A DNA stretch of 64,000 nucleotides from Gammaproteobacteria bacterium (GCA_963662355.1 OY759361.1:1865668-1929667), one strand, 5' to 3'; positions 18,411 through 36,177 are shown, numbered from the stretch's first letter. A program made the numbers and translations. Notes: generated from the sequence alone by a model not told the origin.

Positions 18411-19790
18411 TCAGCTGTTTGCTGCAGCCAGCATCTCATCACAATAAGTGAATTTTTCGCGTGGCTTGCCCTTAGGTTCTCCTGCCGCAACTTCTGCAGC
18501 ATCAACCTTTTCCCATTGTGCGTAATTGATGTACTGTACACCATTACGATCCAAAACAGCATACAGACCTTCACGACCGGGCTTGTCTGAACCGAATTGG
18601 TCGATATCTTCAAGCACAGCACTGACAGACTCAACAGCGCAGGCACGATTGGTTCCGATGATTCCTGAAGGACCCCGCTTGATCCAACCAGCTGTATACA
18701 GACCAGGTAATACATTGCCACCGTGCTCTACTGTAATACGTCCGGTTTCATTTGGAATGGTTCCCCAGCGTTCATAGAATGGTACACCAGGGATAGGAAC
18801 CCCGTTATACCCGATACTGCGGAACAAGATTCCACATTCGATTTCCATCGTCTTACCAGTACCCTTGGCTGACTGCTTGAAGGGTTCACCTGATAATTCA
18901 TTGACTTCAAAAACAACCTTTTGCAGCCGGCGGTCTCCTTCCAGGCGGATAGGGCTTTTTAAAAAGGTTGAAATACAGGTCCGTTGCTTGCCTGTATCCT
19001 CCGATTCTGCAAATTTTTGGAATATTTCTAGATTCTTTTTATTTCCCCTACCCTCTTTGGAATCAATTTCCCGTTGACTTGTTGTGTTCAAGTCAAGCTC
19101 AACTGGATCTATATAGGGGCGACAATTTTCAATCTCTAGGAATTCCTTGAGTTCTTTTGAGGCAAATTTTGCCTGTGCTGGCCCGCGTCGACCGACCACG
19201 TAAATTTTTCTGACTTTACTCTCTGCGAGTACATCCAGTGCATGCTGTGCAATGTCCGTATGCTTCAGTTCATCCACTGATTTTGCCAGAATTCTAGCCA
19301 CATCTGCTGCTACATTGCCCTGGCCTATGACTACAGCATTTTCATGGGACAGATCAAAGGTTCGATCCCGGTAGTCGGGATGTCCGTTATACCAGCCCAC
19401 AAATTCAGTGGCTGTATAGCTGCCGTTTAATTCTTCGCCAGGTATTCCAAGTTTACGATCCGTTTCAGCACCACATGTATAAATTACGGCGTGGTATGTC
19501 TCCTGCAGTTCTTGTGCCTTGATATCTTCACCAACCGTGACATTACCGACGAAATTGAACTCTGGACTTTGTGCAATTTTCTTGTATACCTCAATTGCCT
19601 GCTTAAGCTTGGGATGATCGGGCGCGACACCATTTCGGACGAGACCAAACGGAGCCGGGAGTCTTTCGATTAAATCAATCTCTACCTTCTGGTCTGACTT
19701 GATTAATGCCTCGGTCGCATAAAACCCGCTAGGACCGCTTCCCACAATTGCTACACGTAACGGATTAGATTCACTGCCTATACTGCCCAT
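18411..19790 (-). CDS. FprA-type NADPH:ferredoxin reductase (adrenodoxin-reductase family)
   Basis: 459-aa ORF with N-terminal FAD site VAIVGSGPSGFYA and a second NADP site VVIGQGNVAADVARIL. Confidence 0.8.
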   Translation of the reverse strand: MGSIGSESNPLRVAIVGSGPSGFYATEALIKSDQKVEIDLIERLPAPFGLVRNGVAPDHPKLKQAIEVYKKIAQSPEFNFVGNVTVGEDIKAQELQETYHAVIYTCGAETDRKLGIPGEELNGSYTATEFVGWYNGHPDYRDRTFDLSHENAVVIGQGNVAADVARILAKSVDELKHTDIAQHALDVLAESKVRKIYVVGRRGPAQAKFASKELKEFLEIENCRPYIDPVELDLNTTSQREIDSKEGRGNKKNLEIFQKFAESEDTGKQRTCISTFLKSPIRLEGDRRLQKVVFEVNELSGEPFKQSAKGTGKTMEIECGILFRSIGYNGVPIPGVPFYERWGTIPNETGRITVEHGGNVLPGLYTAGWIKRGPSGIIGTNRACAVESVSAVLEDIDQFGSDKPGREGLYAVLDRNGVQYINYAQWEKVDAAEVAAGEPKGKPREKFTYCDEMLAAANS

Positions 19791-20270: not shown

Positions 20271-21089
20271 CTACCGTGAAAAAAGCAGAATTTCACCTCT
20301 ATTGAGTTCAATCCCGTCTCCACTGTAGCGTCTGTATTTACCGTTCAGATGTTGATCCGTAATTTTATTTTCAAACCCATTTTCCTGTAGCCTGATCAAG
20401 TAAAGACGCAAAAATAAGGGCTGATATTTACACGAAAATTCAAAGCTAGGCAACATCGGGGCATCTTCAAAGCAAACAACAGTTCCCCGTATCATACCGG
20501 CACCTGCACGAACACCCATTTTGCCCATGACAATGACAGTGCCAGCCCGCATATTCACTGCTGTAAAATCTCCTGCATCCCCACCAATTGCAATCAGTCC
20601 ACGCCTCATGGAATTACCAATTTCGTTTTTAGCATCTCCATGAATAAAGATTTCCCCGCCTGTAATACCTATTGCCTGCCCTCTGAACGCGCTGCCAATC
20701 ATGTGCCCCGCATTACCCTTGACAACAATACGCCCCCCTGACATTTCAGGCCCGACCCAATCCGAGGCATTACCTTTGACCAGTATCTCCCCACCTGACA
20801 TGCCAATGCCAACATGCATGCCTACATTACCCTCAATGGTAATGCTCCCGGCGGACATGCCTGCGCCTATCATCTTTATCTTACCTAAATCGCCTTCCAG
20901 TAAAATATCGGGAACCCCCTTACCTGTGACTTTGAAAAAATCGCCTATTTTCGCCTTGATATTTCCATGCAGAACCGGCAAGTGTTCAATACCAAGCTCC
21001 GACAGCCCGGCAATTGCAACCGGACTGATTGCTTCTGCCTCCAAAGGCACATCAGGCTGAGTATGCAGGCGCAGAAATGTCGTAGTCAT
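20271..21089 (-). CDS. fhcC: formyltransferase/hydrolase complex subunit C (FwdC homologue)
   Basis: 272-aa ORF made of repeated G-x-x-G-x-x beta-helix units (GNVGMHVGIGMSGGEILVKGNA...) typical of FwdC/FhcC. Confidence 0.8.
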   Translation of the reverse strand: MTTTFLRLHTQPDVPLEAEAISPVAIAGLSELGIEHLPVLHGNIKAKIGDFFKVTGKGVPDILLEGDLGKIKMIGAGMSAGSITIEGNVGMHVGIGMSGGEILVKGNASDWVGPEMSGGRIVVKGNAGHMIGSAFRGQAIGITGGEIFIHGDAKNEIGNSMRRGLIAIGGDAGDFTAVNMRAGTVIVMGKMGVRAGAGMIRGTVVCFEDAPMLPSFEFSCKYQPLFLRLYLIRLQENGFENKITDQHLNGKYRRYSGDGIELNRGEILLFSR

Positions 21090-21113
21090 GATATCTTACT
21101 TGATATAAAAATT

Positions 21114-22013
21114 TTAAGTATTTGATTCTTTTATTATATTATGCAAATAAAACTTATACTTCCCAAGTTCACCACCATAATTTCCAGCCGTGATCATCAT
21201 GACCCCTTTTCCTGCAGCAGCATGCATACCACGGCGCATTGCCTCTTTCACAGCTTCCTCATTCAATCCATCAGCGACAATTTCATAAACAGCTTCCACA
21301 TTTTCCGGAAGAACTCCCTTGCTGGAAATCGAGCCCAAGGTTGGGCAATAAGCATCATTGGTAGATGCAATCATGGACTTGTACCGGGCACCTATTTTGC
21401 TTCCGGAACCTACCACGCCTTGTGGAAATGGCAGAAATACACCAGCAACTTCGCGCATCGCATTGCTTGCAGCAGTGGCTGCCTGTAATGCAGTATATTT
21501 GTTTGTGCCAAGAATAATCAGGTTCCCGCCCCCCACAGCTGGCTGTATCCCAAATGTATCCTCTATCAGAAACTCTCCCTCCATAACAGGAATGCGCCAG
21601 ATTCTACGGCCACCAATGACCTTACTGATCTGGTAACCATCACCAAAGAAACGTAATTTACCACCTACTGAAACAGTTTTTTCAGACTCCAGTCCGTTAT
21701 ATGCTGCGGTTGTGGGACAGGTCATTACACATTGGCCAATCCTGTCAATGAGCTGACCAGCAATAGTCTTACTACTCATTGTAAACAGCAATACGCTGAC
21801 TCCAGGACGATGATCAGGCGTGTCTTCTTTACGAATCTCACACTCTACAGCCGCCTCAAGCTTGCAACGAATAACTGAAGTAGCAAAACCTGTCATAGAT
21901 GCTGCAGCTGCACGTGCCCACTGTTTGGTATCTGCAGTAATGACTACACGGGCACCCCACATTTTAAAGGCTTCAGCAAATGTATCGACAATTTCCGTTT
22001 TTTGAATCTTCAT
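21114..22013 (-). CDS. fhcD: formylmethanofuran:tetrahydromethanopterin formyltransferase
   Basis: 299-aa ORF (MKIQKTEIVDTFAEAFKMWGARVVITA...), Ftr family; 4-nt overlap with fhcA. Confidence 0.8.
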   Translation of the reverse strand: MKIQKTEIVDTFAEAFKMWGARVVITADTKQWARAAAASMTGFATSVIRCKLEAAVECEIRKEDTPDHRPGVSVLLFTMSSKTIAGQLIDRIGQCVMTCPTTAAYNGLESEKTVSVGGKLRFFGDGYQISKVIGGRRIWRIPVMEGEFLIEDTFGIQPAVGGGNLIILGTNKYTALQAATAASNAMREVAGVFLPFPQGVVGSGSKIGARYKSMIASTNDAYCPTLGSISSKGVLPENVEAVYEIVADGLNEEAVKEAMRRGMHAAAGKGVMMITAGNYGGELGKYKFYLHNIIKESNT

Positions 22014-23707
22014 GATTTTGGATGAGTCGGAATCTCTTCATGATCATGCAGGTAATCATCACTGATCGCATAATTACTAAACCTGACTGAGTAATAGTCC
22101 TCAAAAAACGGCTCTATCTCTGCTGCAATATCTTCATTATATCCCGGTTTTGAATGTAGGATTTTACCCTTGTGATCGGTGGCAAATTCATGGTCATTGA
22201 TGACAGTGATTCCGTCTTTAATTACGTAACGGGGTGCATTGAACATTTTCTCCTTATCATCTTCTTCCGTGTAGACGGTTATATCTGCATCTGCACCTAC
22301 TCCAAGATGACCTTTATTCATCAAACCCAATGCTCTAGCCGGCCCGGCACGCGTAATGATTGCAATCTCGTTCAATGTGTACTCACGGTCGAGCTCAAGC
22401 AGTACGGTCTTATCAACTGCTTTTTGGTTCAGGTGTTTTAATGCCTCTTTTCGATATGCACTATCCATCAACAGTTTGATTAATTTCGGATAGTTCATGA
22501 AAGAGCCACCATTGGGGTGATCTGTAGACAGCAGTACTCGCCACGGATCCTTGGACATCAAAAATAACTCTAGCCCCATTGCCCATTGCAAAGTGTGTGT
22601 GTAGATACTTTCCTGATAGGAAAATGGGATGATCCCGCAACCACTTTCACACTCCGTGTCTGCATTTACCCACTTATCAAACTTAACGTTGCGTAGCATC
22701 CAAGCCAGTGGAGCATCTGCAGTCATTGCTGTCGCTTTACCAAACATGACCTGACCCACATCAGCTGTAATATTTTCATGATCATTAATGTAATCAATGA
22801 TCTCTCTGGCACCAGATACAGGATTTTTATTCAGTTCACCGCCAAAACTGTGAAACTGGATGTGAGCCATATGGACACGTCGACCCTGTGCGGCTTTCAT
22901 AGTGTCCAGCGTCGTACTGATATTCCCGCTGTGACCCAGATTGTTACAGTGGATATGGGGAGGGTGAGGCAACCCCAATTCGTGTGCAGCCTCAATAAAA
23001 CTTTCCATGACATGGACAGGTGTGATGTCGTAATGATCAATACTCTCATTCACATCCGTGATATTTGCATTTTTCCGACCTTTCCAGAGTTCGTCACTCC
23101 CGGTATTCACCAGTTTGACCGTGTATGCATGAACCGAGTTAACCCACCATGCAATTGCCTCCTTGAATTCATTTTTTCGCCCCTCTTTTAATAGCTTGTA
23201 CAAGAATGCATTATTGCCTAGTAATACATAAAAGCCTTTGTCAATCACCGGGGTGTCATCAAGTTCTTCAAGTACATGTCTTGCAGTAATCGGAGGAACT
23301 GCTGCCTCCATAGCCGTGGTATAGCCCATAGTGGCGTAACGATAACCTGTTGCAAAAGTCGAAGGTACAATACCGCCTGTCCCAGAACGGGTAACTGCAG
23401 TTTTGGGATGAACATCCAGGCGATGATCTTCTGGCATCAATTTACGGGCAAGGTTCACTTTAGGTCCTGCAATGTGGCAATGAATATCGATTGCCCCTGG
23501 CATCACTACCATTCCATGTGCATCAATCTTGGTTACAGATTTTGATACGGAATCTACGATCTTTCCATCCCTGACACAAATATCCTGTACATCTCCATTG
23601 ATATGATTGGCAGGATCGTATACACGACCGTTCACGATTTTCAATTCAGATGGCATATTCGGCAATCTCGATATATAACCACCGCCACCTGGTTTGATGG
23701 TCGGCAA
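22010..23707 (-). CDS. fhcA: formyltransferase/hydrolase complex subunit A (amidohydrolase, FwdA homologue)
   Basis: 565-aa ORF with metal-dependent amidohydrolase motifs (GAIDIHCH...). Confidence 0.8.
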   Translation of the reverse strand: MPTIKPGGGGYISRLPNMPSELKIVNGRVYDPANHINGDVQDICVRDGKIVDSVSKSVTKIDAHGMVVMPGAIDIHCHIAGPKVNLARKLMPEDHRLDVHPKTAVTRSGTGGIVPSTFATGYRYATMGYTTAMEAAVPPITARHVLEELDDTPVIDKGFYVLLGNNAFLYKLLKEGRKNEFKEAIAWWVNSVHAYTVKLVNTGSDELWKGRKNANITDVNESIDHYDITPVHVMESFIEAAHELGLPHPPHIHCNNLGHSGNISTTLDTMKAAQGRRVHMAHIQFHSFGGELNKNPVSGAREIIDYINDHENITADVGQVMFGKATAMTADAPLAWMLRNVKFDKWVNADTECESGCGIIPFSYQESIYTHTLQWAMGLELFLMSKDPWRVLLSTDHPNGGSFMNYPKLIKLLMDSAYRKEALKHLNQKAVDKTVLLELDREYTLNEIAIITRAGPARALGLMNKGHLGVGADADITVYTEEDDKEKMFNAPRYVIKDGITVINDHEFATDHKGKILHSKPGYNEDIAAEIEPFFEDYYSVRFSNYAISDDYLHDHEEIPTHPKS

Positions 23708-23720
23708 GTAATTATTAATT

Positions 23721-25079
23721 TTAAAATGCTGTCCTTGCTTTACTTCCTGTCAGCAGTCGCTTTACCCGTTGACGTATTCCTTCCAGTACTTCCTGGTCTG
23801 TCGGGAATGGTGAGTCAAATGCTGGGCGTAAGGAAATTGGCACGTCATCCATTCTGTATACCGTGCCACCTGTGTTGATCCCATAAGTCGCTACTGCAAA
23901 GCGGACTTTGGAGATCTTGGTCGTATGTGTTTCCTTTGTGTCCATGGTAATGACCGGAATCTTCGCTAAATGCTCGATGGCCCTTCTAGAAAAGTTTGAC
24001 GCAGGGTCTGATGCAATAATCATTGCAGCATCCGTTTCACCTCTGGCGAGCACATCACTTGTTGTAAATTCACCCGGATTGAATCTTGGATATCCACGAT
24101 TAAAGTTGACACCAAATGGATAACCTGTCTGCCAAGAGACAACATTGTCTGCTCCGGTTACATTGCCATGACCACGCACAGGCTTAGCAACAAAGTGTGT
24201 AAATTCATTAAGGTCGGCTGCCAAAGAATAAACAGCACCAGAATTGAAGTGGCGACCACGAGTCATTGTCAAGCCCATACCCAAAAACAAAACTCCATAT
24301 TGGCAATTTTTCATTCGGTAGACCAGATCATCGAGCATTTCTCGAGAAACACCCGTTTGCTCCTCAATGTCTTTGCTGATTCTTTTTCCTTTGACAAGTG
24401 CACGCAATGCCCATAGCACCTCAAAATCCTTCCCAGGCTTTACTTGCACAAATATATCAGCCACCGGTGTGCTGGGCGTTTTACGCACATCCACTAAAAC
24501 GACAGTACGATCTTTTTTCCCATTAGGGATATACATCCCTTTTGGAGTTACCGCATAGCGTGTGAAATGTCTAGGATGTGATTCTGCAGGATTGCCACCC
24601 CAGTAAATAACCAGGTCAGCCCGATTTCGAATTTCGCCAAGCGTAGCAGTACTTTCTCCTACACCCTGAAAGGCCATACCTGACGGACCATGACACACCG
24701 AGGTAGTGGTATCGACATTGCCATTTATAGTATCCATGATATCGACGGCTACGCGCTGTGCCTCACAGGTACAGTCACTGAGCCCATAAGTGATCGGAAA
24801 CTTAGCATCCACTAAAATTTGGGCGGCAGTATCCATGCCTTCTTCGAGAGTTGCCTCCTTGCCATCAATCAGTACTACTGGACGATCTTCCAGAACGTGT
24901 TCATAAAACCATGCACGTCCCAATACACATGCATTCTTGGCTTTGGTGATACGATGTTCATCAAGGTCAACTGTAAGCTCCATATCATCACAGACACAGC
25001 CACAAAAAGTGCAGGTTGCATCTTTTACGATCTTAATGTTCTTTTTTTCTTTAGGCTTTGACTGAATAACTTCTGGCAT
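23721..25079 (-). CDS. fhcB: formyltransferase/hydrolase complex subunit B (FwdB homologue)
   Basis: 452-aa ORF with N-terminal Cys cluster CTFCGCVCDD and molybdopterin-oxidoreductase-like fold. Confidence 0.8.
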   Translation of the reverse strand: MPEVIQSKPKEKKNIKIVKDATCTFCGCVCDDMELTVDLDEHRITKAKNACVLGRAWFYEHVLEDRPVVLIDGKEATLEEGMDTAAQILVDAKFPITYGLSDCTCEAQRVAVDIMDTINGNVDTTTSVCHGPSGMAFQGVGESTATLGEIRNRADLVIYWGGNPAESHPRHFTRYAVTPKGMYIPNGKKDRTVVLVDVRKTPSTPVADIFVQVKPGKDFEVLWALRALVKGKRISKDIEEQTGVSREMLDDLVYRMKNCQYGVLFLGMGLTMTRGRHFNSGAVYSLAADLNEFTHFVAKPVRGHGNVTGADNVVSWQTGYPFGVNFNRGYPRFNPGEFTTSDVLARGETDAAMIIASDPASNFSRRAIEHLAKIPVITMDTKETHTTKISKVRFAVATYGINTGGTVYRMDDVPISLRPAFDSPFPTDQEVLEGIRQRVKRLLTGSKARTAF

Positions 25080-25111
25080 GGTTTTTTCCTAACATAAGCT
25101 TTTGATCAGTT

Positions 25112-25450
25112 TTATACTTTAGTAACTATGACTTCCATATGCTTTGACATGGGCATACCAGAAGCTGCCGTATCAGACGCCATCAACTGACTGGATGATG
25201 GTCCATAGGGAATAAAAATCATCCCCGCCGGTAAATCTTCCTTCTTCTTGCTTTTACATGTCACAACAGCCTGCCCAACATCTGATTTCAACTGAATCTT
25301 GTCGCCATTGACCAGTTTCATCCTTTGCATGTCGCTTTCGTTCATCTCTGCCGTCGTGGTCACCGTCAGATATTCATCTTTGAGCTTGCCCTTATTCAGT
25401 GAAGTGCCCTGTTTTTGGGATCGTCCTGGCACAAGTATCATCGTTTCCAC
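25112..25450 (-). CDS. FwdD-like small subunit (molybdopterin-dinucleotide-binding-domain protein), first gene of the fhc operon
   Basis: 112-aa ORF co-linear with archaeal FwdD/FmdD (ILVPGRSQKQG...KLVNGDKIQLKSDVGQAVVTCKSKKKEDLPAGMIFIPYGP); 32 nt upstream of fhcB. Confidence 0.65.
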   Translation of the reverse strand: METMILVPGRSQKQGTSLNKGKLKDEYLTVTTTAEMNESDMQRMKLVNGDKIQLKSDVGQAVVTCKSKKKEDLPAGMIFIPYGPSSSQLMASDTAASGMPMSKHMEVIVTKV

Positions 25451-26381: not shown

Positions 26382-26654
26382 ATGCCAAAATATATGATTG
26401 AACGTGAAATCCCTGGAGCTGGTGACCTACAGGCTGATGATCTAAAGGGAATTTCCCAAAAATCATGCAACATCTTAAAAGAAATGGGTCCCCAGATTCA
26501 GTGGATAGAAAGCTTTGTAACAGACGACAAGATCTATTGTACTTACATAGCACCAAATGAAGACGAAATCCGAAAGCATGCAGAAGAAGGTGGATTTCCA
26601 GCCAACAAGATTGTAGAAATCAAAACGGTTATAAGCCCCACTACAGCAGAATAA
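26382..26654 (+). CDS. DUF4242-like small protein (90 aa)
   Basis: ORF with a good RBS (aggagaattctactATG) and conserved-looking sequence; function unknown. Confidence 0.5.
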   Translation: MPKYMIEREIPGAGDLQADDLKGISQKSCNILKEMGPQIQWIESFVTDDKIYCTYIAPNEDEIRKHAEEGGFPANKIVEIKTVISPTTAE

Positions 26655-26728: not shown

Positions 26729-27358
26729 TTATCCGGGCTTTGAGAAAAACTGGCCCAGCGTGCTTTCATACAGCCAGCCAAAGGATTTCTTAAACTGCTC
26801 AAGAAGATATTCTGAGGGTGTTTGCGGCTTAACCTTCACCATTTGCGGATGGCCGGATAGTAAGCCTATTAAAAACTTTGTCATTGCAGGTGAATCCCAC
26901 TTGCGCTCCCCTACTGCCTTATAGATAAGCCTGCCCTCTGGATTTACCAAGAATGTCGTAGGCAAACCCAGTACCCCCCAGTTTGCAAGACCCATATCCT
27001 GGTCAATCAGAATCGTAAATTCGACTGGCACTTGATCTAAAAACTTTTCCACACCACTCAGGCTTGGCCCTACATGTATGCCAATCACTTCAAGACCGTT
27101 ACTGCGCATCCTGCTGTGCAAATTATCTAGGGCCGGCATCTCGTTTCTACAGGGCGCACACCATGTAGCCCAAAAGTTAAGCAATACAAATTTTCCCTGG
27201 AAATCATTCAGACTGATACTTGCCCCGTTTACAGCATCCAGCCTGAAACCTTCTGCCTCAGGCTTGCCTGCTATCGGCTCCATGGGTGCTCGAGCCAATA
27301 CCCCGTAAGCAAACAAATACATAAACAAAAACAGACACCAACCCAGTATTTTAATCAT
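26729..27358 (-). CDS. periplasmic thiol:disulfide oxidoreductase, TlpA/ResA-like thioredoxin
   Basis: 209-aa ORF with N-terminal signal/anchor, WCAPC active site, TlpA-like fold and about 40-aa C-terminal extension. Confidence 0.75.
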   Translation of the reverse strand: MIKILGWCLFLFMYLFAYGVLARAPMEPIAGKPEAEGFRLDAVNGASISLNDFQGKFVLLNFWATWCAPCRNEMPALDNLHSRMRSNGLEVIGIHVGPSLSGVEKFLDQVPVEFTILIDQDMGLANWGVLGLPTTFLVNPEGRLIYKAVGERKWDSPAMTKFLIGLLSGHPQMVKVKPQTPSEYLLEQFKKSFGWLYESTLGQFFSKPG

Positions 27359-27582: not shown

Positions 27583-28932
27583 TTAAAATTCTAGCTTATT
27601 CTCGTGGGCCCAATTGGGGTCGTCAGCACTGATATCACCTATAGGCGCAGCAAATGCATCTTCTACCAAAATACTGACGTTACCACCAGTTAGAGACTTC
27701 AAGAAAGCAGCCAGATCATCGATCTCAGTATCAGTCAGGTTCAGCGGCCGTATCAGGGGACTGAGTAATTCGTTGGGTATTCCGCCCTGATTATAAAATT
27801 CAATGACGTCACGCAAGGTCAACAGAGAGCCATTGTGCATGTATGGAGCTGTCAATGCGACATTCCGTAAAGAGGGTGTGCGGTATTTCCATCGGTCATT
27901 CGGATCTTCTGTAACTTCATACAAGCCTAGATCATTTTCTCTGGGTCTTGAAACAGACTTGATGACACTTGTGTCCAGTTCCGTATACACACCAGGTGCC
28001 AGCTGCACCCTTGTGGTTTCAGGCTCTACACCCATCGAGTCCTCAAAACCCACCCCTGTATTATGTAGCTGGTCGTCACTGAACAAAGCAAATCCTTCTT
28101 GAATCTGATGACAGACACTGCAGGAACCCTTGCCTGCAAACACCTTGAATCCACGCTTGACCTGTTCGCTGACTGCATCTTCGTCTTTGCCGTAATACCA
28201 AAGATCAAAGGGCGAATTAGCTGCATTCAAGGTTCGCTGGTAGCTAGCAAGTGCCATGCCGATCGTTTCCATGGTCGGACCTCGACCTTCAAAAGCTCCT
28301 TCAAACAAATTGTCATATTCGCGGATAGCCATGATTTTGTTAATGACATAACCAATGGATGGATTAGCCATCTCATTTCGTGCCAACAACGGAGACCAGA
28401 CCTGTTGCTCCAGAGTAGATTCACGCCCATCATGAAAAATCTTTTCCAAATATGCAGAATTAAAAACGGTAGGCGTGTTACGTTTTACAGTACGCCCTTC
28501 AACGCCAACGGCAGTCTTAATTTCATTGTTGGCAAATCCTTGCTCAGGGATATGGCATATAGCACAAGAAAATGTGTCATTGATTGACAGGCGACGGTCA
28601 AAAAAAAGCTTTCTTCCTAGCTGTATCTTCTTGGTAGTAACAGGATTATCGGCTGGAACAGGAACAGGAGGTAACCCTAACGGGGGGCTACTGACAAAAT
28701 CGATCAGTCTAGCTTCCTTTCCTATGCGCTGTTGTAAATCCAAAGAATTCGTTTGGTAATCAGCAGACTCATAACCCTCCTTGTTATCTCCCGGGCCAAA
28801 CACTGCATGGTTCGTGCTCTCAACCAAGTCTGCGGTGAAACCCCTTAAGGCATACAGTACAAGAGCCAAGATGATAGCACTGAAAATAATCGGGACTTTT
28901 ATATTCTTAATTGATCTATTTATGAAATGCAT
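27583..28932 (-). CDS. mauG: di-haem cytochrome c peroxidase family protein (MauG-like)
   Basis: 449-aa ORF with N-terminal TM helix and two CxxCH haem motifs (CAICH, CSVCH). The start overlaps the stop of the upstream SCO1 gene (ATGA). Confidence 0.7.
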   Translation of the reverse strand: MHFINRSIKNIKVPIIFSAIILALVLYALRGFTADLVESTNHAVFGPGDNKEGYESADYQTNSLDLQQRIGKEARLIDFVSSPPLGLPPVPVPADNPVTTKKIQLGRKLFFDRRLSINDTFSCAICHIPEQGFANNEIKTAVGVEGRTVKRNTPTVFNSAYLEKIFHDGRESTLEQQVWSPLLARNEMANPSIGYVINKIMAIREYDNLFEGAFEGRGPTMETIGMALASYQRTLNAANSPFDLWYYGKDEDAVSEQVKRGFKVFAGKGSCSVCHQIQEGFALFSDDQLHNTGVGFEDSMGVEPETTRVQLAPGVYTELDTSVIKSVSRPRENDLGLYEVTEDPNDRWKYRTPSLRNVALTAPYMHNGSLLTLRDVIEFYNQGGIPNELLSPLIRPLNLTDTEIDDLAAFLKSLTGGNVSILVEDAFAAPIGDISADDPNWAHENKLEF

Positions 28933-29678
28933 TATGAATCTATTCGGCCAGGCAATACTCCTTCCTCAATAAGAAGTGTTTTAATGTCGACAGTGACCAA
29001 TTGATCATGTAAAAACGAAACACTGTATTCCTGTCGAATATTTTTCGACCTGTCAATCAGGAAGGCACGCAAAACATGCGCCATAGTCCCCTTGTATTTC
29101 CCGCTTTCATCATACTCCTTGATCACCATCTGCCCGTATTGCCTGATAATCGGCCCTAACGTCTCCTCGGAAGCAGTGGTTAAAAATAACCATTGCGGAT
29201 CTCCATCCTCAAACCCTTCGCCATACAGTCTCATGACTTCAGGAGTATCGTGTTCAGGATCAAAGCTTACACTGATCAACCGGATCGTTTTCGCAAGCTC
29301 CGGGTCATCCTTGAAACGTTCCTTGACTTTATAGAATACAGCAGTCGCCAATGGACAGCCGTTGAAATCTGTGCAACTGCTATAGATGAATGTGAGAAGT
29401 ACGATTTTGTCTCCCATCAACTCACCTAGCTCCAGTTCTTTTCCATCCGGGCCCAAAACAGACCCACCTCCTGCAACGCCTACCCTCGGCAGAGCATATG
29501 ACCCCGGCTTAGGCACTTCATAGGGTAAACTGGCCTTCCAGCCATCTGCCATGATCCTGACTTCTGCACGCGCTGCATGTGAACCCGAGAGATATGAATC
29601 GCGATCAGTATCGCGGTCACAGCCGGGTCCAGCTAGCAGGACACCGCACAACACCAAACCTGTGAAAAATTTTTTCAT
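28932..29678 (-). CDS. SCO1/SenC-family copper chaperone
   Basis: 248-aa lipoprotein-like ORF (signal peptide + LAGPGC), thioredoxin fold with a Cys pair CTDFNGCP in place of the canonical CxxxC, conserved distal His. Confidence 0.7.
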   Translation of the reverse strand: MKKFFTGLVLCGVLLAGPGCDRDTDRDSYLSGSHAARAEVRIMADGWKASLPYEVPKPGSYALPRVGVAGGGSVLGPDGKELELGELMGDKIVLLTFIYSSCTDFNGCPLATAVFYKVKERFKDDPELAKTIRLISVSFDPEHDTPEVMRLYGEGFEDGDPQWLFLTTASEETLGPIIRQYGQMVIKEYDESGKYKGTMAHVLRAFLIDRSKNIRQEYSVSFLHDQLVTVDIKTLLIEEGVLPGRIDS

Positions 29679-29778
29679 CTACAACAACTACTCCAGAAAC
29701 GACAAGGCCGCCTCACAGGCGGCCTTGTTCCAGTTCTAATTCTGGCTGATGATTACATCATTGTAAACAAGCCGCTTT

Positions 29779-31155
29779 TTAATGTTGTGACAGCAGCGTA
29801 CCCGTGGAGTTCGGTTTTTGCGAATACAGTGAGTATGCTCCAAAACGCATCTGATGGGCACGGCCAAGTTTCAGAGCGTAGAAATCTACCGTAAACTCAT
29901 GAACAAGCTCCTGTCCGTTCCATGAAAACAATTTGAAAAACTGTTCGTCCATGTCACCGGTTTTATCCCAGTTTCCTAACAAAGATGACGTGAAGTAAGT
30001 ACGTTTCCCATCCCAACTCTGTGAAATCATGTTCACTTGTGAACCAATCTCATGCTCATATGTCTGCTTTGGATTAAATGGGTCAGAAATATCAAAATAT
30101 CGCGTCTTGCCATCCATGAAGGTCTGTACCCAAAGACCCTTATCATCTGCTGTAATTGAGATATCCACAGGCAACGGCACTTTAGAGGGATCACCTATAT
30201 CCCCTACTGCCTTGGCTTGCCATTCACCTGCATCGTCTTCATAGATCAACCAGATTTTTGAAGTCAAGGCCGTAGTGGTCAAACAGTAGTTATGATTTGA
30301 ACCCCATGCGCAACGAATTTCCAAAGGCGCCCCAGGAACTTCAAATACTTTTTTCGGTTTACGGGTATGCAAGTCCCACACTACCACAGTATTACCAAAC
30401 CGTTTCATGGCCTCTGCATCTGAAAGCATCTTGCTGAAATCCATCATGTAGTTGGACCAGCCCGTAAACGAGGAGGTAATCATCACGTTTCGACGTGGCA
30501 AAGCCCGCACATCGTAACCATATCCGTCAGCAATATTTCCCACCTTCTTAGCACCACGCAGATTTTCATCTGTCGGCATCCAATGTGCAGCAACAAATTC
30601 ACCTTCATTGGTAAATTCTGCAATTCCGGTCCTGCCTCCATGATCCACATTATTGGATAAAGCACTGACCATGATTCGGCCAGGTAAGGCATACATTGTG
30701 TGAGGGCCAACCATGCCTCCAGTCTTCTCTACAAAATCAGTAATAACTTTATGCAAGACGGGTTTACTAGGATTGGTGTGTACATCAAAAATAAAAATCT
30801 TGTTGCTGTCCAGACCACCACCAAACAGATAACGACGATCATCCGTTAAACCGGAGTGGTGCGCTTCATTACGTCCTCCTACAGAAAGCACATTGACAAC
30901 TTTCCCGTAGTTGACTGAATCTGGATTAACAGAAATGGTAACCAGCTTATCCTGCTCATCACCAAGACCTTCTACACCCAATGTCCAAACGTACACATAG
31001 TCTTCTTGGCCAACGATTTTTGCCATATAGGGAGACATACAGGTCTCATCGGCCATAGCAGTAGAGTGAAAGCCAATTGCAGATGCCAGTACGACCCATA
31101 AAAATGCAATGCTGCCTTGCACCCACTTAGCTTGTGATTTCGCCATTTTCTTCAT
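29779..31155 (-). CDS. mtoX: selenium-binding-protein (SBP56) family methanethiol oxidase
   Basis: 458-aa ORF with signal peptide and SBP56 beta-propeller architecture including His-rich sites (EAHHSG...). The gene order SBP56 - SCO1 - MauG is the one reported for mtoX in Hyphomicrobium. Confidence 0.75.
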   Translation of the reverse strand: MKKMAKSQAKWVQGSIAFLWVVLASAIGFHSTAMADETCMSPYMAKIVGQEDYVYVWTLGVEGLGDEQDKLVTISVNPDSVNYGKVVNVLSVGGRNEAHHSGLTDDRRYLFGGGLDSNKIFIFDVHTNPSKPVLHKVITDFVEKTGGMVGPHTMYALPGRIMVSALSNNVDHGGRTGIAEFTNEGEFVAAHWMPTDENLRGAKKVGNIADGYGYDVRALPRRNVMITSSFTGWSNYMMDFSKMLSDAEAMKRFGNTVVVWDLHTRKPKKVFEVPGAPLEIRCAWGSNHNYCLTTTALTSKIWLIYEDDAGEWQAKAVGDIGDPSKVPLPVDISITADDKGLWVQTFMDGKTRYFDISDPFNPKQTYEHEIGSQVNMISQSWDGKRTYFTSSLLGNWDKTGDMDEQFFKLFSWNGQELVHEFTVDFYALKLGRAHQMRFGAYSLYSQKPNSTGTLLSQH

Positions 31156-31475: not shown

Positions 31476-32042
31476 ATGCTTAACAATTTACATAGATTTC
31501 ATTTATTTTTTTTATTGATTATTTGCCTTGCTGCCAGCTTGGCTGAAGCCGACAGGGTGGGAGGTGATTTTGAGCTTACCACTCACCAAAACATGCCCTA
31601 CTCACTGGCTAATTCCAGGGGTCAGGTAGTTTTATTGTTCTTCGGCTTTACAAGCTGTCCGGATGTATGCCCTCACACATTAAGTGTCGTTCAAAGCGTA
31701 TTGAACCAATTAGGCTCCAAAGCCCAACAGGTTCAGCCACTGTTCATCACCGTTGACCCCAACCGTGATACGCCAGAAATTTTGAAACATTACCTGGAAT
31801 ATTTTGGCAGCGGTTATATAGGCTTAACCGGGTCTGTTGAGGAGATAGATAAAGTAGTTGGCCAGTTCAGTGCCTTTTACTCATTTGAAGGGAATACTGT
31901 TGAAGGCGCCTACTCTGTCAATCATACTTCCAATTTATATATAATAGACACTGAAGGTGAAGTTGCAAGCATAGTTCCTTATGGTACACCCATGCAGGCA
32001 ATCCTTAGGAGTATTGAGGAATTGCTGCTTAGCAAGTTATAG
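31476..32042 (+). CDS. SCO1/SenC-family copper chaperone (second paralogue)
   Basis: 188-aa ORF with signal peptide and the canonical CPDVCP motif; divergent from mtoX. Confidence 0.75.
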   Translation: MLNNLHRFHLFFLLIICLAASLAEADRVGGDFELTTHQNMPYSLANSRGQVVLLFFGFTSCPDVCPHTLSVVQSVLNQLGSKAQQVQPLFITVDPNRDTPEILKHYLEYFGSGYIGLTGSVEEIDKVVGQFSAFYSFEGNTVEGAYSVNHTSNLYIIDTEGEVASIVPYGTPMQAILRSIEELLLSKL

Positions 32043-32053
32043 CCAGAAGGCCA

Positions 32054-32440
32054 TTATTTGTACTGAATGTAGGCAAAGCGTGGGTCGCTTGGCGTGCCCT
32101 CCAAATCTCCACTGCCTGTACCAGGTTGCCACATTATTACCTCTTCAATTTTCTGAGCCAGTTCAAAGTCCTTATTGGTGACCCCCTTGGCAGCATGATT
32201 CATTAGCTTGCAGATGACAAAAGCATAAGACACCGTGAGGTCAGGATGATGAAAGGCTGCTTCTGCTAAATGTCCAATCGTATTCACTACCATAAGTGTG
32301 CCTTTCCAGCCATGTGTCCTGTACTTTCTACGAATCCATCCATTCTCGTAATACCAAGTAGGCAATTCTTCAGTTAGCCTTTCTTTTATTTGTTCTTCTG
32401 TATAGGTCTGTTCAGATTTGATATCGCGCCACTTCGACAT
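32054..32440 (-). CDS. pterin-4a-carbinolamine dehydratase-like protein
   Basis: 128-aa ORF with the PCD signature ...EAAFHHPDLTVSYAF... Confidence 0.6.
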   Translation of the reverse strand: MSKWRDIKSEQTYTEEQIKERLTEELPTWYYENGWIRRKYRTHGWKGTLMVVNTIGHLAEAAFHHPDLTVSYAFVICKLMNHAAKGVTNKDFELAQKIEEVIMWQPGTGSGDLEGTPSDPRFAYIQYK

Positions 32441-32723: not shown

Positions 32724-33605
32724 TCAGCAGGGCATAGATAAGGTAGCCACTTTTACGACATTTTTCATCAACATGGCCACGGTCATTGGACCCACACCGC
32801 CCGGCACAGGGGTAATCATTGAAGCAACACCTATGGCCTGAGCAAAGTCCACATCTCCTACGAGACAGGTTTTTCCATCCTCTTCAATGCGATTAATCCC
32901 AACATCTATGACGATCGCCCCAGGTTTTATCATGTCTGCCTTAATAAACCGTGCCTGTCCTATCGCCGCAATCAGGATGTCAGCCTGCAGTGTGAAATTC
33001 TCAATATTTTCAGTTCTGGAGTGACACACAGTAACTGTTGAATTGGCATATCTGGCTTTTTGTACCAGCATGTTCATAAGCGGTTTCCCTACAATATTGC
33101 TGCGCCCGACGATAACTACGTGCTTGCCAACAGTTTCAATACCGCTCCTTGAAATCAACTGCGATACCGCATTGGGTGTACAGGAAACCAAGGTATCCAG
33201 TCCGGCAGTCAAGCACCCGACATTATAGGGGTGGAAACCGTCAACATCCTTTTGAGGCGAAATTGCAGCGATGATGTTGTGTTCTCCAATATGGTCAGGC
33301 AAGGGTAACTGGACCAAGATGCCATGCACCTCAGGATTATCATTTAACGTAGTGATCAGCCCGATCAGTTCTGGCTCAGAAATATCCTCTAGAAGGTCAT
33401 GTTGAATCAATCGTATTCCGACTTGCCTTCCTGCTTCCTGCTTGGCTCCCACATAGGCACGAGAAGCAGGATCACTCCCAACCAGGATAACCGCCAGACA
33501 AGGATGCACACCCCGTGATTGCAGCTTGTCTACTTGGCCTTTAACTTCCAGTTGAATTTGTGTGGCAATCGCTTTCCCGTCAATTAGTACTGTCGCCATA
33601 GTCAC
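32724..33605 (-). CDS. folD: bifunctional methylenetetrahydrofolate dehydrogenase/methenyltetrahydrofolate cyclohydrolase
   Basis: 293-aa ORF, FolD co-linear (IDGKAIA...VILVGSDPASRAYV...). Confidence 0.9.
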   Translation of the reverse strand: MTMATVLIDGKAIATQIQLEVKGQVDKLQSRGVHPCLAVILVGSDPASRAYVGAKQEAGRQVGIRLIQHDLLEDISEPELIGLITTLNDNPEVHGILVQLPLPDHIGEHNIIAAISPQKDVDGFHPYNVGCLTAGLDTLVSCTPNAVSQLISRSGIETVGKHVVIVGRSNIVGKPLMNMLVQKARYANSTVTVCHSRTENIENFTLQADILIAAIGQARFIKADMIKPGAIVIDVGINRIEEDGKTCLVGDVDFAQAIGVASMITPVPGGVGPMTVAMLMKNVVKVATLSMPC

Positions 33606-33707
33606 CTCAAATCAATTTAAAACGACAACTGGCCTCTTCATCAGACAATACATCACTACACTTCAGATTCTTTCACAAAAATTACATTTCTTGATTGTAC
33701 CGCAATG

Positions 33708-33740
33708 CAAAAACGGCGAACGTATAGTCCGCCGTTTTCA
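33708..33740 (-). terminator. rho-independent terminator downstream of the EGKCG-repeat gene (bidirectional-looking hairpin)
   Basis: Stem acggcg/cgccgt (33713-33718 / 33730-33735) flanked by A5 on one side and T4 on the other. Confidence 0.5.
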
Positions 33741-33769
33741 CAAAGCTACAGGTAAACCGAAGAGCAGTA

Positions 33770-34222
33770 TTAGCTGCTGTCACTACCTTCTTCGGATTTA
33801 CCTTCCCCGCATTTGCCTTCTCCACACTTGCCTTCCCCGCATTTGCCTTCTTCAGATTTATCCTCTTCAGATTCGCCTTCCCCGCATTTGCCTTCCCCAC
33901 ACTTGCCTTCCCCGCATTTGCCTTCTTCAGATTTATCCTCTTCAGATTCGCCTTCCCCGCATTTGCCTTCCCCACACTTGCCTTCCCCGCATTTGCCTTC
34001 TTCAGATTTATCCTCTTCAGATTCGCCTTCCCCGCATTTGCCTTCCCCACATTTACCTTCCTCGGCTGCACCATGGCTATCAGCTACCATGTACCCGGCT
34101 GACAATTCGGTCATTTGAAACAGGTCTTGATCAGCACTTGCTGTAGAAATTCCAAATGCGCCTGTTGCCAAGACTGCACCAACAGCCACTACCAATGGCT
34201 TTAATTCAGATTTCGCTTTCAT
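33770..34222 (-). CDS. secreted EGKCG-repeat protein (HvfA-like oxazolone/thioamide RiPP-type Cu-metallophore precursor family)
   Basis: 150-aa ORF. Sec signal peptide MKAKSELKPLVVAVGAVLATGAFGISTASA, then 9 EGKCG motifs in three identical 25-aa modules (EGKCG)3-EGESEEDKSE plus a partial fourth. SD-like aggag upstream and a terminator hairpin downstream. Confidence 0.7.
   Translation of the reverse strand: MKAKSELKPLVVAVGAVLATGAFGISTASADQDLFQMTELSAGYMVADSHGAAEEGKCGEGKCGEGESEEDKSEEGKCGEGKCGEGKCGEGESEEDKSEEGKCGEGKCGEGKCGEGESEEDKSEEGKCGEGKCGEGKCGEGKSEEGSDSS
33800..34060. repeat. 75-bp near-perfect tandem repeat, about 3.5 copies (encodes the EGKCG modules); also internal 15-bp sub-repeats
   Basis: Units 33801-33874, 33875-33949 and 33950-34024 are identical except 1 nt. 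A diverged partial copy runs to about 34060. Confidence 0.9.
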
Positions 34223-35322: not shown

Positions 35323-36147
35323 TCAGCTTGTATGAATAGCCCAGGTGACATCGATAGCCTGACGATTTTGCCAAACATCGTGCACACGAAATATTTTTAC
35401 TCCTGCTAACACCCCAAGAGCAGACGTCGCGCATGTTGCCGGCATCCTTGCCCTTGGATTCTCCTGCATTGAAATCTCACCCATAAATCGTTTACGGCTA
35501 GTACCCAGCATCACCGGGTACCCTAGTCCAGTAAACATCTTCAGATCCCGTAGTAATTCCAGGTTATGTTGAGTTCGTTTACCAAACCCAATTCCCGGGT
35601 CGAGTATAATGTTATCTTTTTTTACACCTATATCCTGAGCCTTCTCAGCCCGGCCCAAAAGAAAGTCTGATACTTCTCGGGTGACATTTTCGTAATCAGG
35701 ATGATCCTGCATGGTTGCGGGCTCTCCACGCATGTGCATTAGACAAACAGGAACTTCAGCCACTGCTGCAAGTTTTAATAAACCCATGTCTTCACGGCCC
35801 GCACTCACATCATTCAGCATGGTTGCACCTGCATCCAAGGCCGCGTAGGCAACTTCAGATAAAGTCGTATCAATGCTGATATGGATATGTTCAGGCAACT
35901 CCGCATGCAGACCTGCGATCACATCAATCACCCTGCGCTTTTGCTCTGACGCTCCTACACGAGTGGACCCTGGTCGAGTTGATTCTCCACCTACATCAAT
36001 AATATCTGCACCTTGTTCAACCATTTCTATCCCGCAGGCAATTGCATCTTTGGAAGAAGGGTATACTCCACCATCGGAAAAACTGTCTGGTGTTACATTG
36101 AGCACACCCATCAGAAGTGGCCTTGAATAATCTAAATGCACAGTCAT
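35323..36147 (-). CDS. folP: dihydropteroate synthase
   Basis: Classic FolP motifs LMGVLNVTPDSFSDGG and IIDVGGESTRPG. The ORF as called starts at 36177, but the internal Met at 36147 aligns with FolP N-termini. Confidence 0.85.
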   Translation of the reverse strand: MTVHLDYSRPLLMGVLNVTPDSFSDGGVYPSSKDAIACGIEMVEQGADIIDVGGESTRPGSTRVGASEQKRRVIDVIAGLHAELPEHIHISIDTTLSEVAYAALDAGATMLNDVSAGREDMGLLKLAAVAEVPVCLMHMRGEPATMQDHPDYENVTREVSDFLLGRAEKAQDIGVKKDNIILDPGIGFGKRTQHNLELLRDLKMFTGLGYPVMLGTSRKRFMGEISMQENPRARMPATCATSALGVLAGVKIFRVHDVWQNRQAIDVTWAIHTS

Positions 36148-36177
36148 ATGCCTCAGTAAATGGAATCTGTTACACAA

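Follow-up and report, generated by a model that had tools for sequence, protein, structure and literature searches.

A gammaproteobacterial methanethiol oxidase gene cluster and its candidate maturation genes

A three-gene unit on the minus strand of a 64,000-nucleotide stretch of gammaproteobacterial DNA (the window, meaning the whole stretch analysed) is best explained, mechanism included, as a methanethiol oxidase operon that includes genes devoted to maturing the enzyme, an explanation that we hold to be probable. We infer that a Sco-like protein would insert copper into the oxidase, MtoX, and that a MauG-type di-haem enzyme would oxidize its residue Trp233. The locus is a typical case of an already described methanethiol copper-enzyme gene cluster, Eyice et al. 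(2017; PMC5739008) having reported the order mtoX-SCO1/senC-mauG from Hyphomicrobium sp. VS and Ruegeria pomeroyi. What appears to be new comes from a comparison of 168 mtoX copies: the norm for the cysteine loop of the Sco protein, the co-variation of MtoX residues Trp233, Met238, and Pro78 with MauG, and the histidine at the inter-haem position of the di-haem protein.

The three-gene unit and its methanethiol oxidase

An earlier, sequence-only reading of the window had placed an SBP56 protein, a Sco protein, and a MauG-like protein at this locus, and all three ORFs were confirmed:

29779-31155, minus strand: mtoX, methanethiol oxidase (458-aa ORF; NF052453, Pfam SBP56)
28932-29678, minus strand: sco, Sco-like gene for a thioredoxin-fold copper chaperone (248 aa; Pfam SCO1-SenC)
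27583-28932, minus strand: mauG, MauG-type di-haem gene (449 aa; Pfam CCP_MauG)

Pfam scores were 161 bits for SBP56, 51.9 bits for SCO1-SenC (cut-off 22.8), and 168 bits for CCP_MauG. The sco/mauG junction, previously described as an ATGA overlap at 28932, proved to be a TAATG reading GATTCATAATGCATT, in which the TAA stop codon of sco and the ATG start codon of mauG have only base 28932 in common; the ATGA form is that of R. pomeroyi. The 1-nt overlap supports a predicted translational coupling of the pair.

The claim that the gene order is that of known mtoX clusters holds for Hyphomicrobium sp. VS and for R. pomeroyi DSS-3 (SPOA0269-0271), in which the same three families stand in the same order on one strand and, in R. 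pomeroyi as in the window, sco and mauG overlap; in Methylophaga thiooxydans, sco1 and mauG form a single fusion gene with a tlpA-like gene after it, whereas the window has two coupled genes (PMC6548844). In mto clusters 1 and 2 of M. thiooxydans, likewise a gammaproteobacterial methylotroph host, Sco and MauG functions come after mtoX as in the window, and a TlpA-like periplasmic protein comes next (Kroeber and Schaefer, 2019; PMC6548844). The genes pdo, sqrB, and sulP were not found among the families identified over ~15-41 kb of the window, where the flavoprotein at 18411-19790 and some small ORFs have no assigned family. The window differs from the R. pomeroyi/Hyphomicrobium operon in having no upstream IclR regulator, in its TAATG junction, and in its additional divergent canonical Sco, TlpA-like, and DUF4242 genes; moreover, its mtoX directly adjoins genes of H4MPT-pathway formaldehyde oxidation, whereas the R. 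pomeroyi/Hyphomicrobium type has a glutathione-dependent formaldehyde dehydrogenase.

Of 127 mtoX copies for which at least 1.8 kb downstream was available, 99 are directly followed by genes for a Sco and a MauG-type protein (the Sco loop is Cx5CP in 97 and not readable in the HSP in two), and in 40 of those 97 loci sco and mauG are fused into a single polypeptide. Judged from these sequences, the arrangement is far beyond chance. It is very improbable that the neighborhood is coincidental, with the Sco and di-haem genes having their roles in cytochrome oxidase or periplasmic copper homeostasis generally: a second, canonical Sco gene and a TlpA-like gene, typical of oxidase assembly, do lie in the region, but coincidence is effectively refuted by conservation of the same order in ~100 loci from Alpha- and Gammaproteobacteria and metagenomes, the Sco protein of the mtoX locus belongs to a distinct subfamily, and the two genes are co-induced with mtoX on DMS in M. 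thiooxydans (PMC6548844).

The identification of the SBP56 protein as MtoX was upheld by a score of 760.2 bits against the NCBIfam equivalog NF052453 (cut-off 650; profile positions 1-407 of 408) and by 69% identity to the genetically validated MtoX of R. pomeroyi. The signal peptide assigned to it is likewise plausible as a Sec signal (MKKMAKSQ...HSTAMA/DETC), leaving a mature end like that of R. pomeroyi MtoX. The relevant residues are as follows:

31051-31155, minus strand: MtoX signal peptide, residues 1-35 (sequence reading)
31039-31041, minus strand: Cys39 of the DETCMSPYM motif (alignment)
30856-30861, minus strand: putative copper ligands His99 and His100 (alignment)
30700-30702, minus strand: putative copper ligand His152 (alignment)
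30457-30459, minus strand: Trp233, co-varying with MauG
30442-30444, minus strand: Met238, co-varying with MauG
29968-29970, minus strand: Trp396 (residue mapping, conservation)
29854-29856, minus strand: putative copper ligand His434 (alignment)

MtoX proteins are recognized by a single cysteine in the motif TC(Q/M)SPYM at the mature N-terminus (Cys28 of RpMTO; PMC10936201), which the window sequence TAMA/DETCMSPYM fits; Cys39 is kept in 167 of 168 copies, the other having a gap. His99, His100, His152, and His434 align with His88, His89, His141, and His424 of R. pomeroyi and, together with Trp396, are unvarying in all 168 copies; counterparts of the four copper-ligand histidines proposed for strain VS (His89, His90, His140, His412) are all present. 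The R. pomeroyi equivalents of Trp233 and Trp396 are Trp223 and Trp386, which have been placed beside the histidine ligands on the 2ECE structure (PMC10936201; PMC5739008); these published statements on closeness to the copper site cover Trp233, not Met238. The Sec signal, the mature DETC(M/Q)SPYM, the four histidines, and the two tryptophans are common to the window, R. pomeroyi, and Hyphomicrobium sp. VS. The mtoX product is accordingly predicted, with strong support, to be a Sec-exported, copper-dependent methanethiol oxidase that would catalyze CH3SH + O2 -> formaldehyde + reduced sulfur product + H2O2.

The Sco-like and di-haem proteins

Two features of the Sco-like protein and three genes around the unit bear on copper delivery or recur beside mtoX:

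29352-29375, minus strand: Sco cysteine loop C102-TDFNG-C108-P (CTDFNGCP, residues 102-109)
29076-29078, minus strand: Sco distal His201, aligning with the histidine of T. thermophilus Sco1 (2K6V)
26729-27358, minus strand: TlpA/ResA-like periplasmic thiol:disulfide oxidoreductase, 209 aa (Pfam AhpC-TSA, Redoxin, Thioredoxin_8)
27149-27163, minus strand: WCAPC motif of the TlpA-like protein, residues 66-70 (sequence reading)
31476-32042, plus strand: canonical Sco with CPDVCP, 188 aa (SCO1-SenC, 149 bits), divergent from mtoX
26382-26654, plus strand: SCO4226-like (DUF4242) small cytoplasmic protein, 90 aa (PF14026, 102 bits)

The unusual cysteine spacing noted in the sequence-only reading is genuine, and is the norm for this Sco subfamily rather than a peculiarity of the window. 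The protein lacks the CxxxCP of the SCO1/SenC family while passing the PF02630 threshold and keeping the distal histidine; in alignment with 2K6V, CpdvCP with a two-residue gap faces CtdfngCP and the Cys2His triad is retained. A profile search of the window matched no NCBIfam model to it. Among 71 genome loci, 70 have Cx5CP, as does R. pomeroyi SPOA0270 (CGDVNGCP); in 97 of 99 cases a MauG gene accompanies the family loop CxDxxGCP, which has reverted to CxxxCP in one MauG-less clade. The lipoprotein label of the sequence-only reading is not established: the hydrophobic N-terminus, read as an anchor or signal sequence, has in the window the ending ...LLAGPGC, unlike a canonical lipobox, while some orthologues have one (e.g., LLTAC, VLAC). 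An N-terminal extension of ~70 aa relative to canonical Sco contains a PxPGSYxLP motif.

The window protein resembles the canonical Sco/TlpA pair for CuA (Bradyrhizobium ScoI, 4WBJ; B. subtilis Sco, 1XZO) in its thioredoxin fold, two cysteines, and distal histidine and, by prediction, in a membrane-tethered periplasmic location beside a TlpA-type reductase. It differs in its Cx5C rather than CxxxC spacing, in the extension, in the frequent di-haem fusion within its family, and in the proposed client, which would be the all-histidine copper site of the oxidase rather than CuA. The TlpA-like gene, 224 nt downstream of mauG and matching the NCBIfam ResA and TlpA models below their cut-offs, probably encodes the protein responsible for holding the Sco cysteines in reduced form; it occurs downstream at 33 of 51 well-flanked genome loci vs. 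1 of 18 metagenome loci, and is an accessory and not a core part. The canonical Sco, found at 33 of 51 genome loci and at 4 of 18 metagenome loci, is another copper chaperone, and its divergent position recurs in many gammaproteobacterial relatives, a lineage-restricted association. The DUF4242 gene also recurs beside mtoX clusters, convergent downstream in relatives of the window and co-directional just upstream of mtoX in Methylotuvimicrobium and several metagenome loci, and its membership in the system is uncertain.

The di-haem protein has an N-terminal signal or anchor sequence and four diagnostic sites:

28552-28566, minus strand: haem motif CAICH (CxxCH), residues 123-127
28108-28122, minus strand: haem motif CSVCH (CxxCH), residues 271-275
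28432-28434, minus strand: His167, at the inter-haem Trp position of bCcP enzymes (FHDGR vs. FWDGR)
27793-27795, minus strand: axial Tyr380, aligning with MauG Tyr294

Two CxxCH motifs occur in 100 of 101 orthologues and Tyr380 in 100 of 100; the tyrosine aligns with MauG Tyr294 and with the methionine ligand of MacA, a canonical peroxidase. Two CxxCH motifs together with a tyrosine in place of methionine as sixth ligand of the electron-transfer haem mark the protein as MauG-type; such His/Tyr enzymes use H2O2 as oxidant and are poor peroxidases (PMC11892367). The tryptophan that lies between the haems in MauG (Trp93) is replaced by His167, the FHDGR of the window aligning to FWDGR in five bCcPs, and the chemistry of electron transfer may not be the same as in MauG, since this position is histidine in 89 of 101 orthologues and tryptophan in four.

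Assignment as a canonical bacterial cytochrome c peroxidase was rejected because of the tyrosine where the His/Met class has methionine. That the protein nonetheless acts as a periplasmic cytochrome c peroxidase, clearing the H2O2 made by the methanethiol oxidase, would fit its place in the bCcP/MauG superfamily and the good alignment of its N-terminal domain with canonical peroxidases; given the tyrosine in every orthologue read and the poor peroxidase activity of His/Tyr enzymes, and because this would leave the fusion to a copper chaperone and the co-variation of Trp233 and Met238 (below) without explanation, we consider it improbable.

The closest solved relative is MbnH of the MbnH-MbnP pair (6E1C, E = 4e-44, aligned residues 84-432), with which the MauG-type tyrosine ligand is common. 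MbnH turns a tryptophan of MbnP, a periplasmic copper protein, into a kynurenine that binds copper with histidine and methionine (PMC11951088). The score against the MbnH family TIGR04039, however, is 238.6 bits, under the cut-off of 362.85, the inter-haem residue is histidine rather than tryptophan, and no MbnP-like gene adjoins the di-haem gene in the window, where the neighbors are the Sco and TlpA-like genes; unlike in MbnH-MbnP, a Sco protein is the chaperone, and the proposed partner is a beta-propeller oxidase. With MauG acting on pre-methylamine dehydrogenase (3L4M) the protein has in common the His/Tyr second haem and, as proposed, long-range oxidation of a partner tryptophan, but the window has neither mauA nor mauB, Trp93 is replaced by His167, and the TTQ MauG equivalog TIGR03791 scores 203.9 bits, under the cut-off of 443.85. 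No NCBIfam models match the protein better than TIGR04039 and TIGR03791.

Proposed maturation of MtoX

The argument that conservation of MauG implies a modification of MtoX is not new, a tryptophan tryptophylquinone (TTQ) cofactor having been proposed in 2017 (Eyice et al., 2017; PMC5739008), and it is weakened because recombinant RpMTO, Roseobacter RdMTO, and human SELENBP1 all turned over methanethiol when produced in E. coli in the absence of any MauG. A literature search found no demonstration of a modified residue, TTQ included, in any MtoX. Neither sco nor mauG lies beside the genes of the cytoplasmic SBP56 clade, which also counts against a maturation step.

We compared 113 MauG-linked mtoX copies with 19 Sco-linked copies having no MauG gene within 2-6 kb of the locus. 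Of 84 MtoX positions strictly invariant in the MauG-linked copies, 74 are unaltered in the 19, and only three are altered in most of them: Met238 (14/19), Trp233 (13/19, replaced by K, L, F, or R and kept in 6/19), and Pro78 (12/19). A neighbor-joining tree shows at least three independent losses of Trp233, each of them following loss of MauG. Few evolutionary events lie behind this co-variation (two MauG losses, three Trp233 losses), and Fisher p-values overstate the support because the CxxxCP loci without MauG form a single clade, for which a different substrate may be an alternative cause. From these patterns one tryptophan and one methionine of MtoX, Trp233 and Met238, are the likely site of the proposed maturation step.

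The di-haem protein might instead act on or with Sco, setting the redox state of its cysteines or of Cu(I)/Cu(II) or modifying the cysteine loop, and leave MtoX unmodified. The overlap and frequent fusion of the two genes speak for this, as does the longer loop that accompanies MauG and is canonical only in a clade without it. The association of loop and MauG, however, amounts to a single evolutionary event, two loci (L154 and L164) keep Cx5CP without MauG, known MauG-type enzymes oxidize tryptophans of partner proteins, and relaxation of Trp233 and Met238 after MauG loss would be unforeseen were MtoX no substrate; we regard action on Sco as unlikely.

In the maturation of MtoX that we favor, apo-MtoX would fold in the periplasm, and Sco, through its Cys-x5-Cys and histidine triad and kept reduced by the downstream TlpA-like thioredoxin, would load copper into the four-histidine site. 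The MauG-type enzyme, with its His/Tyr electron-transfer haem and often fused to Sco, would then oxidize Trp233 from a distance, using H2O2, or O2 and a reductant. The product might be a quinone cross-linked to Trp396, as in the 2017 proposal, or a kynurenine or hydroxy-Trp ligand, as with MbnH on MbnP; together with Met238 this group could tune the copper site and perhaps also which products are formed, while basal thiol oxidation would not require the step. The most specific form, in which an MbnH-like enzyme makes of Trp233 a kynurenine-type ligand or Trp396-linked quinone that forms or tunes the copper site with Met238, the Cx5CP Sco being an obligate and frequently fused partner, is put forward tentatively and may well be wrong. 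If true, it would add a third kind to the MauG-family systems for protein maturation, of which one makes TTQ in methylamine dehydrogenase and another kynurenine in MbnP, and would explain why recombinant, unmatured MTO yields sulfane sulfur and no H2O2 whereas the native enzyme yields H2S and H2O2.

The mtoX-sco intergenic hairpin

The intergenic region between mtoX and sco contains a structure absent from the sequence-only reading:

29693-29729, minus strand: hairpin and U-rich tail, 49 nt past the mtoX stop codon

The GC-rich stem-loop (29702-29729) has a 12-bp stem, AACAAGGCCGCC-UGUGA-GGCGGCCUUGU, and is followed by the U-rich tail CGUUUCUGG (29693-29701). The hairpin alone has a folding energy of -22.4 kcal/mol, and the entire intergenic region a z-score of -4.5 vs. 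shuffled sequences; a consensus terminator scan did not call the hairpin. It is likely to be a leaky terminator or attenuator, or an mRNA-stabilizing 3' hairpin, giving high mtoX and low sco/mauG expression, and part of the transcripts may be terminated there. In the proposed maturation scheme most transcripts would end at this point and read-through would supply small amounts of the helper proteins. Relatives have the same structure at the same position, with compensatory changes in the stem, and a hairpin of -12 kcal/mol or stronger was found in 93 of 108 loci.

The mtoX locus of the window

Three open reading frames of the expected Pfam families lie on the minus strand, where the sequence-only reading had placed them, and a hairpin separates the first two:

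29779–31155, minus strand: mtoX, 458 aa (Pfam SBP56, 161 bits)
29693–29729: 12-bp GC-rich hairpin with a U-rich tail, between mtoX and sco
28932–29678, minus strand: Sco-like gene, 248 aa (Pfam SCO1-SenC, 51.9 bits)
27583–28932, minus strand: MauG-type di-haem gene, 449 aa (Pfam CCP_MauG, 168 bits)

Assignment of the SBP56-family protein as methanethiol oxidase (MtoX) is borne out by a score of 760 bits against the NCBI curated methanethiol oxidase equivalog (NCBIfam profile search; cut-off 650) and by 69% identity to the enzyme of Ruegeria pomeroyi, in which knockout of mtoX abolishes methanethiol degradation (PMC5739008). The N-terminus is a predicted signal peptide ending TAMA|DETC. Cytoplasmic SBP56 homologues share 25–29% identity and are without sco or mauG neighbours; a PDB search for structures of MtoX or SELENBP1 returned as the only relative an uncharacterised Sulfolobus tokodaii protein (2ECE).

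The Sco-like protein is divergent, matching none of the NCBIfam models and scoring 52 bits where the canonical Sco at 31476–32042 reaches 149 (Pfam SCO1-SenC). The Cys motif CTDFNGCP is present as read (residues 102–109); in an alignment to Thermus thermophilus Sco1 both Cys and the distal His201 are kept, with a loop two residues longer. The loop consensus among mtoX-linked Sco proteins is CxDxNGCP, and the R. pomeroyi operon, on which experiments have been done, encodes CGDVNGCP. Of the earlier description as a SCO1 lipoprotein, membership of the Sco family stands, and the lipoprotein part is unproven because the hydrophobic N-terminus ends in LLAGPGC, a non-canonical lipobox. Public databases already list an identical protein, from a MAG, under the name 'SCO family protein'. 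The sco/mauG-type junction, GATTCATAATGCATT, had been read as an ATGA overlap; it is TAATG, with the single base 28932 belonging both to the stop codon TAA and to the start codon ATG. Relatives have the mtoX-sco hairpin at the same place, with changes in its stem that compensate each other, and a comparable hairpin was found in 93 of 108 loci; it would attenuate expression of the helper genes.

The gene order is, as proposed, of a reported type: the mtoX operon, its copper dependence and a proposed MauG-made TTQ cofactor were published in 2017 (PMC5739008), and M. thiooxydans has fused sco1/mauG and a tlpA-like gene, with co-induction on DMS (PMC6548844). The first finding is thus correct and well read, yet the system was already known, and the window locus is a new instance from an uncultured gammaproteobacterium with nothing new in kind. 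The statement that oxidative maturation of MtoX has not been worked out also holds, since a literature search for an MtoX modification or demonstrated cofactor found no paper, and a 2025 review of protein-derived cofactors omits MtoX.

Methanethiol oxidase has a key place in the cycling of DMSP, DMS and sulfur derived from methionine, and its human homologue, SELENBP1, underlies one form of halitosis. The value of the present comparison lies in the maturation question: how the active site is acquired, asked since 2017, is narrowed to MtoX Trp233 and Met238 and one Sco loop, and clades lacking MauG supply natural controls, so that co-variation at the level of residues and loop makes a maturation hypothesis directly testable.

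Arrangement of mtoX loci

The survey comprised 168 mtoX copies (80 species-level genome loci, 80 metagenome loci, six plasmid loci and the window itself).

Genes downstream of mtoX in the 127 copies having at least 1.8 kb of downstream sequence
Sco (Cx5CP) and MauG-type gene: 97 of 127, 40 of them fused
Sco (Cx5CP) without MauG: 2 of 127
Sco (CxxxCP) without MauG: 9 of 127
Sco (CxxxCP) and MauG: 0 of 127
Neither Sco nor MauG downstream: 14 of 127
Sco undetected, MauG-type match within 3.6 kb: 3 of 127
Fused Sco-MauG, loop motif unresolved: 2 of 127

Sco loop type is associated with MauG (Fisher p = 1e-11); all CxxxCP loci form a single clade in a neighbour-joining tree, so that the association counts as one event. 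This loop co-variation, together with the Sco-MauG fusions, speaks for a rival reading in which the haem enzyme acts on Sco, whereas the residue changes described below point to MtoX as its substrate.

The CxxxCP clade, sister to the MauG-linked lineages, is a soil or alphaproteobacterial group of MtoX-like proteins with a canonical-CxxxCP Sco downstream of mtoX, no MauG-type gene after it, and substitutions at Trp233 and Met238; its members are loci L087–L091 (Skermanella and Microvirga plasmids), L092–L102, L119, L136, L141, L152 and L156. A search of the Skermanella and Microvirga plasmids for a MauG orthologue elsewhere found none, only unrelated bCcP/MauG homologues at no more than 40% identity. 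Loci L154 and L164 represent a second loss of MauG in the same tree.

Related genomes contain further mtoX copies that have neither sco nor mauG beside them (L020 at 4349 and 6001, L025–L027, L031–L035 and L076). Locus L020 is a tandem mtoX-mtoX-sco-mauG array, one MAG has two orphan copies plus a complete cluster (L006, L025, L026), and four sponge-associated 'Porisulfidus'/Oxydemutatoraceae chromosomes have an orphan copy only, among the loci retrieved.

MtoX residues, the di-haem protein and the proposed maturation

Strict invariance across the 113 MauG-linked copies was found at 84 MtoX positions, 74 of which are unchanged in all 19 Sco-linked copies that are MauG-less, that is, with MauG absent locally, near mtoX. 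At only three of the 84 is the residue replaced in the majority of these 19: Met238 (to R or L in 14), Trp233 (to L, K, F or R in 13) and Pro78 (changed in 12). Tyr43, beside the catalytic Cys39, is Phe in five. His99, His100, His152, His434, Cys39 and Trp396 are invariant across all of the 168 copies, and on this ground the MauG-less proteins appear to be functional enzymes. The neighbour-joining tree shows three losses of Trp233, one to K, one to L/F and one to R, each inside MauG-less lineages whose basal members still have Trp. Trp233 and Trp396 correspond to R. pomeroyi Trp223 and Trp386, which were earlier placed beside the His ligands (PMC10936201, PMC5739008). Fourteen orphan copies retain Trp233 and Met238; some share a genome or tandem array with a complete cluster, and their products could therefore be matured in trans. 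The comparative signal is built on few evolutionary events, and the substrate of the MauG-less clade may be a different one. An initial finding that Trp233 sets MtoX apart from the cytoplasmic SBP56 clade was dropped: the first alignment gave Pro there, but the cytoplasmic proteins have a Trp three residues earlier (SEWAxPN vs SSFTGWSNY), an equivalence that sequence cannot decide, so the Trp233 claim is restricted to the MtoX clade.

The di-haem protein has two CxxCH motifs. In alignments its Tyr380 falls on Tyr294, an axial ligand in MauG, and on the Met that is the axial ligand in MacA, a canonical peroxidase. Published work uses His/Tyr ligation to tell oxidising enzymes of the MauG type from peroxidases that scavenge H2O2 (PMC11892367); a role as a plain peroxidase was considered and, after the axial ligand mapped as Tyr and not Met, down-weighted, and is disfavoured. 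The nearest solved structure is MbnH (6E1C, E = 4e-44), followed by MauG (E about 1e-24), and the protein falls under the curated NCBIfam cut-offs of both families. MauG, MbnH and canonical peroxidases conserve an inter-haem Trp, whereas mtoX-linked di-haem proteins mostly have His: the window protein shows FHDGR where bCcPs show FWDGR (His167, 28432–28434), and among 101 mtoX-linked orthologues His occupies the position in 89 and Trp in only 4. BthA is the sole MauG-type enzyme reported without this Trp (PMC11892367).

Homology and conservation assign to MtoX the putative role of Cu oxidase in the periplasm, to the Sco-like protein that of its dedicated chaperone, and to the di-haem protein, which is coupled or fused to Sco, that of an oxidising enzyme of the MauG type; a TlpA-type reductase would be optional. 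Sco would load the site formed by the putative Cu ligands His99, His100, His152 and His434 of MtoX, and the di-haem enzyme would oxidise Trp233. The copper site of MbnP is kynurenine/Met/His (PMC11951088); because the kinship of the di-haem protein with MbnH and the joint behaviour of Trp and Met in MtoX recall MbnP, a kynurenine-type ligand is regarded as at least as plausible as TTQ. Produced in E. coli with no MauG present, RpMTO (the R. pomeroyi MtoX), RdMTO and human SELENBP1 turn over methanethiol, with products that differ by study (sulfane sulfur without H2O2, or H2S and H2O2 from copper-loaded enzyme). Since such unmatured recombinants are active, the modification would tune MtoX rather than enable catalysis.

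Neighbouring genes

The following genes surround the cluster:

14890–15885, minus strand: beta-RFAP synthase
20271–25450, minus strand: H4MPT formaldehyde-oxidation genes (GXGXG subunit, formyltransferase, amidohydrolase subunit, FMD subunit B/D-like)
26382–26654, plus strand: SCO4226-like DUF4242 cytoplasmic protein, 90 aa; convergent, downstream
26729–27358: TlpA/ResA-like thioredoxin (WCAPC), downstream of the di-haem gene
31476–32042: canonical Sco, divergent, upstream of mtoX
32054–32440, minus strand: pterin-4a-carbinolamine dehydratase (PCD), adjoining the divergent canonical Sco
32724–33605, minus strand: FolD, upstream of mtoX
35323–36177, minus strand: dihydropteroate synthase

The H4MPT formyltransferase/hydrolase genes fit a formaldehyde-releasing enzyme; as H4MPT-linked genes flank the cluster, the host is taken to be a methylotroph-type gammaproteobacterium able to dispose of the formaldehyde from MtoX. 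The TlpA-like, canonical Sco, DUF4242 and PCD genes, common in gammaproteobacterial relatives of the window and rare elsewhere, are accessories. PCD keeps its position beside the canonical Sco in two gammaproteobacterial groups (27–96% identity).

A secreted 150-aa peptide with EGKCGEGKCG...ESEEDKSE repeats (33770–34222, minus strand) scores 81 bits against NCBIfam NF050137 (KCGExKCG_twice, HvfA-family oxazolone/thioamide-modified RiPP metallophore; cut-off 19.5). It has no modification gene of the DUF692 or DUF2063 type beside it, the neighbours being FolD downstream and an uncharacterised membrane protein upstream, and this metallophore precursor was rejected as part of the system because only the six closest relatives have it syntenic with mtoX. 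Open reading frames overlapping it, at 33562–34146 (plus), 33682–34074 (minus) and 33813–34118 (plus), are repeat artefacts. A 459-aa flavoprotein (Pyr_redox_2; 18411–19790, minus strand) has only weak matches, to the N-terminus of the glutamate synthase small subunit.

DUF4242 genes stand beside mtoX in the window and at L041, L043, L045, L058, L080, L122, L126, L155 and L160. They do so in two arrangements, convergent and downstream in relatives of the window, and co-directional 330–530 nt upstream in Methylotuvimicrobium and several metagenome loci; this recurrence suggests an undescribed functional link.
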